A model generated the notes under the pieces. That model had not been told where the DNA came from and made no database searches. It saw nothing but the letters and a program-made list of their open reading frames with translations. From assembly GCF_058153355.1 (NCBI RefSeq), contig NZ_CM177019.1: DNA of 64,000 bases; one strand, written 5' to 3'. A program made the position numbers and the translations under genes. This document shows, piece by piece, positions 25,412 to 25,728 of this stretch. Position 1 is the first letter of the stretch. Every line of letters starts with the position of its first letter.

Positions 25412-25728
25412 CCATCAACGAAAAAGCCCACATCTGTGGGCTTTCATAACACCAGGAGCCGCGGCTCCTTTGCGTATCCTTTTATGTCTCCTCACCGTCT
25501 GGTCGGTGTCTTGCTGAGACTTCTAACTTCCTGTTTTTGTTGGTGTTGTCCTTGCACCGTCCAATCATGATTGGCTGGCGGAGTTTGAATTGGTTGTGTA
25601 ATTCATTGAATTTACTTAGGAAAATCCTGGTTCAACTTTTCGGTGGTGCCTATTTAGGTGCCTAAAAGTTTTTTCACCCTATTTTGGTTAGTAAAAGGAA
25701 GAGACATAGGGAAGGAGATTGACGCTAC

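Follow-up and report, generated by a model that had tools for sequence, protein, structure and literature searches.

Probable attachment sites of a CP4-57-family island at the 3′ end of ssrA, and putative arm-type repeats in related elements

CP4-57 of Escherichia coli K-12 lies between ssrA and ypjA, and the 14-nt copy of the ssrA end at its distal boundary is labelled in the K-12 record as a pseudogene, psaA (b4645), whose sequence TGGTGG-GCTGGCGG represents a 1-nt deletion. Overexpression of AlpA in K-12 induced the excision of CP4-57, which deleted T357 and inactivated tmRNA (PMC10107115), and excision of both CP4-57 and the Shewanella island CP4So leaves a 1-nt deletion in ssrA and an inactive tmRNA (PMC10107115, PMC5148205). 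AlpA acts as an excisionase in CP4So: its overproduction induces excision, and deletion mutants of alpA or intA do not excise (PMC5148205). Variants of the ssrA end have been tabulated, with the 1-nt deleted form listed for K-12, Shewanella, Vibrio, and S. Typhi, and the form CGCCAGC-----CA, citing Williams 2003, for Salmonella Stm27X, E. coli RS218 Eco48X, and O157 Oi108; mutations of this table from other bacteria abolished trans-translation when put into E. coli tmRNA (Table 1 in PMC10107115). For phage P4, the record NC_001609 annotates "attP arm sequence repeat" features around an attP core at 4078-4097. A single copy in inverted orientation marks the start of int (3915-3926); about 112 nt separate the core from a tandem pair of 12-nt period on the int side (3942-3965), and another tandem pair follows 53-76 nt past the core (4151-4174). 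The P4 int gene is negatively regulated by Int and Vis, according to the title of Piazzolla 2006 as cited in PMC2603039.

The window (the whole 64-kb stretch of DNA analysed here) carries an island at the locus of CP4-57, in the same orientation. With good confidence, its two end regions can be taken as the attachment sites of an element of 23.25 kb that belongs to the CP4-57 family and uses a P4-type tyrosine integrase for insertion into the ssrA 3′ end (Table 1). The island is a new but biologically ordinary member of the well-described CP4-57/P4-integrase family, and direct precedents exist for its att anatomy, its damaged distal copy, and its arm repeats in CP4-57 with psaA, the published ssrA variants, and the P4 attP. 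Nothing here overturns current understanding; only the comparative regularities described below, the motif classes and the damage pattern of distal cores, may be new.

Table 1. Features at the ends of the island and genes linked to its mobility, in window coordinates.
Feature	Position	Strand	Basis or remark
Island with one core copy	25575-48826		Empty-site comparison, core distance, K-12 homologues; backbone CP4-57-like
Distal attachment core (attR, CP4-57 usage)	25571-25581	+	TTGG + CTGGCGG, the ssrA end TTGGTGGAGCTGGCGG minus 5 nt
Island-borne stretch 3′ of the core, AGTTTGAA	25582-25589	+	Resembles ssrA T-loop segment GAGTTGAA, not identical
Conserved box GTTCAACTTT before the distal repeats	25630-25639	+	Contains the reverse complement of ssrA T-loop AGTTGAA
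Distal (P′) arm, two tandem GGTGCCTA	25645-25664	+	12-nt period; putative integrase arm-type sites
alpA-like gene (AlpA/Vis-type excisionase and regulator)	37216-37455	-	tblastn; 64% identical to K-12 AlpA over 59 residues
P4-family tyrosine integrase, 413 aa	47373-48614	-	85% identical to K-12 IntA
Inverted GGTGCCTA copy	48634-48641	-	19 nt upstream of the integrase ATG; putative arm site, possibly int operator
Integrase-side (P) arm, two tandem GGTGCCTA	48665-48684	+	12-nt period; ends 143 nt before the core
Island-borne spacer, repeats to ssrA	48685-48818	-	Near-identical to the K-12 CP4-57 spacer
ssrA-side core (attL)	48819-48833	-	Intact ssrA 3′ end TGGTGGAGCTGGCGG; RNA strand CCGCCAGCTCCACCA

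The comparison with island-free strains, which the sequence-only reading had proposed for an element at about 25.57-48.84 kb, revealed an empty site: ypjA and ssrA directly adjoin each other in PSS-13 and in many further E. coli genomes. In PSS-13, 160 nt separate the ypjA end from ssrA, and the junction reads ...CAATCATGAT|TGGTGGAGCTGGCGGGAGTTGAAC (over a longer stretch, ...CCGTCCAATCATGAT|TGGTGGAGCTGGCGGGAGTTGAACCCGCG). When positions 24800-26400 of the window were searched against 5,426 complete E. coli genomes, the homology of many island-free genomes stopped at 25578, the features under the match being ypjA and ssrA. The ypjA side of the window reads ...CAATCATGATTGG-----CTGGCGG-AGTTTGAATTGG and the ssrA side ...GGAGAATTTTGGTGGAGCTGGCGGGAGTTGAAC, with CTGGCGG cores at 25575 and 48827 that lie 23,251 bp apart, repeat to repeat. 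The empty-site junction and the break at 25578 thus place the island between these two copies, in agreement with the extent first suggested, and its insertion point is the ssrA 3′ end, which is uninterrupted in island-free genomes. The minus-strand tmRNA that ARAGORN predicted (48819-49181) encodes the E. coli tag ANDENYALAA. On this side it is the island DNA that provides both an intact 3′ end for the tmRNA and the terminator of ssrA, and a terminator-like hairpin for ssrA (48744-48758) is located inside the island-borne spacer. That the two ends represent attR and attL of an island at ssrA, as originally read, is supported by the empty site, by the arm-binding domain of the integrase, and by a repeat layout like that of P4.

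The resemblance to the ssrA 3′ end that had been noted at 25574-25590 and 48824-48842 was recovered as the ssrA-like 16-mer GCTGGCGGAGTTTGAA at 25574-25589 and the ssrA 3′ end GCTGGCGGGAGTTGAAC at 48826-48842. It goes beyond chance, because it is precisely at this place, at 25578, that the similarity of island-free genomes to the window ends. The description of the distal copy as degenerate needs to be modified: it is a copy of the ssrA end, but instead of diffuse degeneracy it shows a defined 5-nt deletion that is catalogued as a variant in PMC10107115. A direct repeat of the ssrA 3′ end is thus present at the distal boundary, 5 nt short (TTGG-----CTGGCGG; on the ssrA strand, CGCCAGCCA and then flank, CGCCAGC-----CA), and its contiguous identity with the ssrA side amounts to the 7 nt CTGGCGG. 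The second half of the presumed degenerate copy is the island-borne stretch AGTTTGAA, which is kept as AGTYTGAA among 70 distinct distal-arm cores obtained by scanning viral contigs and E. coli genomes. Since the 5 nt just outside CTGGCGG are missing at the distal site, this copy may recombine poorly or never. An intact distal copy occurs in 54 of the 5,426 E. coli genomes, EC11 among them. The scar GATTGGCTGGCG is also found in ST3 and in 2017C-4109 (O157-like), followed by quite different island sequence, and being common to unrelated islands it may be chromosome-side and older than the island in the window. Stm27X, Eco48X, and Oi108 have the identical 5-nt deletion variant; Eco48X and Oi108 differ in carrying other integrase types, whereas the scar in the window adjoins a P4-type distal arm that matches the class of the resident integrase. 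ST3 encodes an unrelated ssrA integrase of 415 aa, with upstream repeats GTGGTGCTAAA, inverted TTTAGCACCAC, and related copies (L087, 31200-31460).

The motif GGTGCCTA has five matches in the window, all of them perfect 8-mers at the two island ends. Two motifs had been reported near 25640-25665, and they correspond to exact copies at 25645-52 (+) and 25657-64 (+), at offsets of 70 and 82 nt from the first base of the core CTGGCGG. The three copies described upstream of the integrase, one of them inverted, were found at 48665-72 (+), 48677-84 (+), and 48634-41 (-). Around the tandem pairs a 34-nt direct repeat extends over 25638-25671 and 48658-48691 (79% identity). The inverted copy is invariant in all 15 distinct class-A upstream sequences, which come from many genera. 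Copies of GGTGCCTA with one mismatch are not enriched in the window (24 found vs. 35.7 expected), and one such copy within int (48429-36) was taken as chance. The distal repeats are preceded by a conserved box, (G)TTCAACTTT, located 6-15 nt ahead of them and absent from the P4 attP; at the box position TTCAA[CGT]TT was found in 54 of the 70 distal arms and in every motif class. Neither arm contains the strict IHF consensus WATCAANNNNTTR, and simple promoter scans found no sigma-70-like promoter in either.

This arrangement closely follows the P4 attP, where one inverted repeat likewise adjoins the start of int, a tandem pair of 12-nt period is placed between int and core, another pair lies about 55-80 nt past the core, and the core opens with the CCA end of the targeted RNA gene. 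The integrases belong to the same Pfam domain families (in the window, Arm-DNA-bind_3 at residues 8-95, Phage_int_M at 107-198, and Phage_integrase at 214-378). However, P4 targets leuX instead of ssrA, and its repeat is (A/G)TGCCCCC instead of GGTGCCTA. P4-like satellites at ssrA (e.g., in E. coli EC11, L173) resemble the island in their arm layout and in their core, which is TTGGTGGAGCTGGCGG with AGTCTGAA after it. They differ in their integrase (59% identical), their motif GTATACC, and a complete set of satellite genes (primase, capsid assembly protein, psu, delta-like), as in EC11, where the distal copy is also intact. No satellite genes (primase-helicase alpha, sid, psu, delta, cos) are listed for the annotated close relatives L084 and L085, and judged from these annotations the element in the window is not a satellite phage.

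In the window and in CP4-57 the spacer of about 130 nt and the ssrA terminator are near-identical, the distal sequence CTGGCGGAGTYTGAATTGGTTGTGTAA is found in both islands, and the K-12 homologues on the island comprise yfjI, yfjJ, yfjP, yfjQ, yfjR, lfgB, ypjJ, the toxin-antitoxin pair yfjZ-ypjF, and alpA. The integrase, whose start lies 204 nt from the ssrA end, aligns to IntA without gaps, but the identity drops to 71% in the arm-binding domain (first 100 residues) compared with 92% in the remainder. The arm repeats differ too: CP4-57 has TGGGCCTA beside the integrase and TGGTCCCA/TGGTCCTA in its far arm, whereas those of the window are GGTGCCTA. Further differences concern the distal core, with a 1-nt deletion in K-12 and a 5-nt deletion in the window, and the cargo, which in K-12 consists of abpAB and rnlAB and in the window of PD-Lambda-4 and a helicase-DUF2290 pair. 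The yfjI block of the window is also inverted and carries IS66.

A comparison of 80 related integrase loci, taken from one genome per species and covering many enterobacterial genera, revealed that the regions upstream of the integrase fall into two classes, one with two TAGGCACC and an inverted GGTGCCTA and the other with two TAGGCCCA and an inverted TGGGCCTA. The three integrase-side sites change in concert and persist in backgrounds as divergent as Providencia and Morganella. All 32 loci with three GGTGCCTA-class sites have arm domains at least 76% identical to that of the window and at most 72% identical to that of K-12, and all 34 TGGGCCTA-class loci show the reverse pattern, being closer to K-12 than to the window. 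The motif class therefore follows the first 100 integrase residues in all 66 loci, whereas residues 101-400 are about 90% identical in both classes. Because the integrase-side repeats adjoin int, their covariation with the arm domain alone could reflect linkage; only the class concordance at the far end, which lies kilobases from int, escapes this objection. There, 68 of the 70 distal arms have a tandem pair at equal distance from the core, with the motifs GGTGCCTA (10 pairs), TGGGCCTA (3), GTGTACC (20), GTATACC (29), and TGGTCC(C/T)A (6). For elements of which both ends were available, the arms agreed in class over 9-23 kb: GGTGCCTA in the window and in L084 and L085; GTATACC in 12 elements including the P4-like satellite of EC11; and GTGTACC in L208. 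A 2.45-kb mini-element seen twice (L023/L118) likewise has GGTGCCTA in both arms. The classes of the far side and the integrase side co-vary in about 18 elements. The exceptions are K-12, whose integrase-side TGGGCCTA repeats are paired with TGGTCCCA/TGGTCCTA at the other end, and ETEC6335, which combines TGGGCCTA at the integrase side with GGTGCCTA at the far side in a composite locus that contains a second, broken integrase fragment. These observations point to an element-encoded protein with discrete specificity classes as the binder of the repeats, and as far as sequences can tell the arm-binding domain of the integrase is the best candidate.

Some of these elements merit separate mention. 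The far-end type of K-12 (L003, 23380-23410) recurs unchanged in five viral contigs (L177, L186, L212, L227, and L236) and thus represents a conserved type rather than decay. The broken integrase fragment of ETEC6335 (L086, 12183-12609) has GGGTCCCA/GGGACCC repeats upstream. The mini-element of L023 (Kosakonia) and L118 (a viral contig) is essentially an integrase between distal and ssrA-side arms, and its distal core is fused to the start-codon region of a neighbouring integrase gene (…CTTGCCATTGCG|CTGGCGG). Strain 55989 was considered as an independent island of the same integrase class and discarded, its distal end having been deleted by an IS3.

Other explanations of the repeats and of the island ends have to be weighed against these data. 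Short motifs and a 16-mer with indels can arise randomly, but a chance origin of the resemblances has a negligible probability: dinucleotide-preserving shuffles contained on average 1.21 matches to GGTGCCTA and in none of 100 cases five or more, the empty-site breakpoint coincides with the 16-mer, and the sites are conserved across genera. The encoded AlpA-like protein would make it conceivable that the repeats bind an AlpA/Vis-type excisionase instead of the integrase arm domain. However, AlpA similarity does not track motif class. Five GGTGCCTA-class loci (L011, L012, L014, L016, and L025) have AlpA proteins 75-82% identical to K-12 AlpA, and among TGGGCCTA-class loci the identity spans 48% to 91%, whereas class and integrase arm domain agree throughout the 66 loci. 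The layout also equals that of the annotated P4 arm repeats, and the repeats in the window occupy both arms, whereas excisionase sites usually are confined to one arm. Binding by AlpA is thus improbable, and where the sequence-only reading had left the arm-type sites to either protein, the integrase is favoured. The integrase-side repeats could also be mere operators of int, with the far-side pair an unrelated duplicate. One copy does lie only 19 nt upstream of the ATG, a spacer of 23 nt is framed by two copies in the manner of an operator, and the title mentioned above attests negative regulation of int in P4. Operators alone, however, would not predict the covariation of class between the two sides in about 18 elements, nor that 68 of 70 related distal arms have a pair of the matching class at a constant spacing from the core, and we regard this explanation as very unlikely. 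An operator role and an arm-site role of the repeats are compatible with each other.

More weight has to be given to the idea that the ends are genuine att remnants of an island that has become fixed, so that the repeats are fossil. The distal core lacks 5 nt beside CTGGCGG, an IS66 element interrupts the yfjI-like gene, PD-Lambda-4_B is split, and the same 5-nt scar beside unrelated islands may be an old chromosomal scar. On the other hand, the integrase is full length and gapless relative to IntA, the alpA-like ORF is open, the five 8-mer repeats are perfect, and CP4-57 of K-12 still excises despite its 1-nt-deleted distal core (PMC10107115). Fixation is therefore a serious possibility, although it falls short of being probable.

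If the repeats are arm-type sites of the integrase, this protein would be heterobivalent. Its N-terminal domain (residues 8-95) most likely holds GGTGCCTA in both arms, while the core-binding and catalytic domains would exchange strands at CTGGCGG, and bridging of arms and core would lead to an intasome by analogy with lambda and P4. The GGTGCCTA copy next to the int ATG probably enables the integrase to autoregulate its own promoter. By analogy with the described AlpA proteins, the AlpA-like protein would drive excision by conferring directionality, by activating int, or both. Two other candidates for alpA were dismissed: the ORF at 33445-33657 has the length of AlpA (70 aa) but is not AlpA, and a helix-turn-helix ORF at 33509-33790 (93 aa) is XRE-like. 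The alpA-like gene itself was located by tblastn.

The position of the crossover is less clear. Crossover in the T-loop is typical of many tRNA-targeting integrases. It was rejected for the island, because AGTYTGAA of the island and GAGTTGAA of ssrA differ. As the excision products of K-12 and Shewanella keep the distal deletion, we infer a crossover in (G)CTGGCGG, on the ssrA-body side of the deletion. If so, excision would give ...GATTGGCTGGCGGGAGTTGAAC and leave ssrA ending in ...CGCCAG|CCAAUCAUG, and the resulting tmRNA, without CUCCA of the acceptor stem and discriminator, would be truncated and probably inactive. The loss of the island would then make the cell dependent on rescue by ArfA, as shown for CP4-57, and a loss of tmRNA on excision would, if true, bear on the stability of the island and its defence genes. 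The distal cores fit this scheme only in part. Only 5 of the 70 are intact and 38 share the same 1-nt deletion; among 19 tandem junctions of stacked islands that are preceded by a CP4-57-like integrase-side arm, none is intact. The pattern by which the loci were fetched required CTGGCGGAGTCTGAAT, so that the apparent invariance of this block is partly built into the sample. A newly formed junction should carry an intact copy if the exchange took place in CTGGCGG, and the 1-nt deletion at the junctions thus counts against such a crossover. The junction data would suggest a crossover in TTGG(TGG) instead, but this conflicts with the published K-12 excision product and was rejected. Possible reasons for the damage at the junctions are that the deletion is recurring, that it is native to attP with the exchange occurring left of or across it, or that it is enriched because the loss of the island breaks tmRNA. 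The core at the tandem junctions is TGGTGG-GCTGGCGG in 16 of the 19 cases (viral contigs L113, L040, L170, L176, L181, L200, and others).

A combined interpretation would be that P4-type integrases at ssrA form at least 4-5 orthogonal classes of arm motif and arm domain that share one core, and that the damage to the distal ssrA end is non-random; as a joint proposal this is tentative and rather doubtful. Non-random damage may be carried by the element (native to attP, with strand exchange across a 1-nt heterology) or may be selected, the island holding ssrA hostage, and the 5-nt deletion in the window may be one instance of it. If the classes are indeed orthogonal, several islands could stack in tandem at ssrA without cross-excision. 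End-matched classes of arm sites provide a simple criterion by which the two ends of stacked ssrA islands can be paired from sequence, and they offer candidate orthogonal sets of integrases and att sites.

With these ends, the limits are fixed for a 23-kb island that carries anti-phage cargo, namely PD-Lambda-4 and the helicase-DUF2290 pair. At least 80% of the island is covered in only 1 of the 5,426 E. coli genomes, which indicates that this combination of backbone and cargo is uncommon, not that the kind of element is. PD-Lambda-4 is encoded at 38718-43525 (-). Its protein A (1283 aa, 39674-43525) matches the PADLOC model from end to end, and protein B is distributed over two ORFs (39095-39628, model positions 1-176; 38718-39047, model positions 195-303) and thus is probably disrupted. 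At 44239-46922 (+), a 669-aa helicase and, after it, a 223-aa DUF2290 protein match the PADLOC models Helicase and DUF2290 and thus hint at a further candidate defence pair beside the integrase; related islands (L084) have a single protein of 1248 aa at this position. The distal end carries the module usual for CP4-57 (25729-27972, -), with a CbtA-like toxin (ypjF homologue), a CbeA/YeeU-like antitoxin (yfjZ), a DUF987 protein (ypjJ), a RadC-like protein (lfgB), and a DUF932 protein that is 88% identical to K-12 yfjQ. The IS66-family element (tnpA 32005-32433, tnpB 31661-32008, and a transposase at 30070-31641, all on the minus strand) is located within 29355-33244 and splits the yfjI-like (DUF3987) gene into 29355-30149 and 32480-33244. 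Outside the island, ARAGORN predicted a tRNA-Met with the anticodon CAT at 17522-17597 (+). Other E. coli have a RefSeq tRNA-Ile in the same orientation a few kb upstream of ypjA (e.g., L173, 10821-10896), and by synteny with it we take the tRNA in the window to be probably of the lysidine-modified ileY type.
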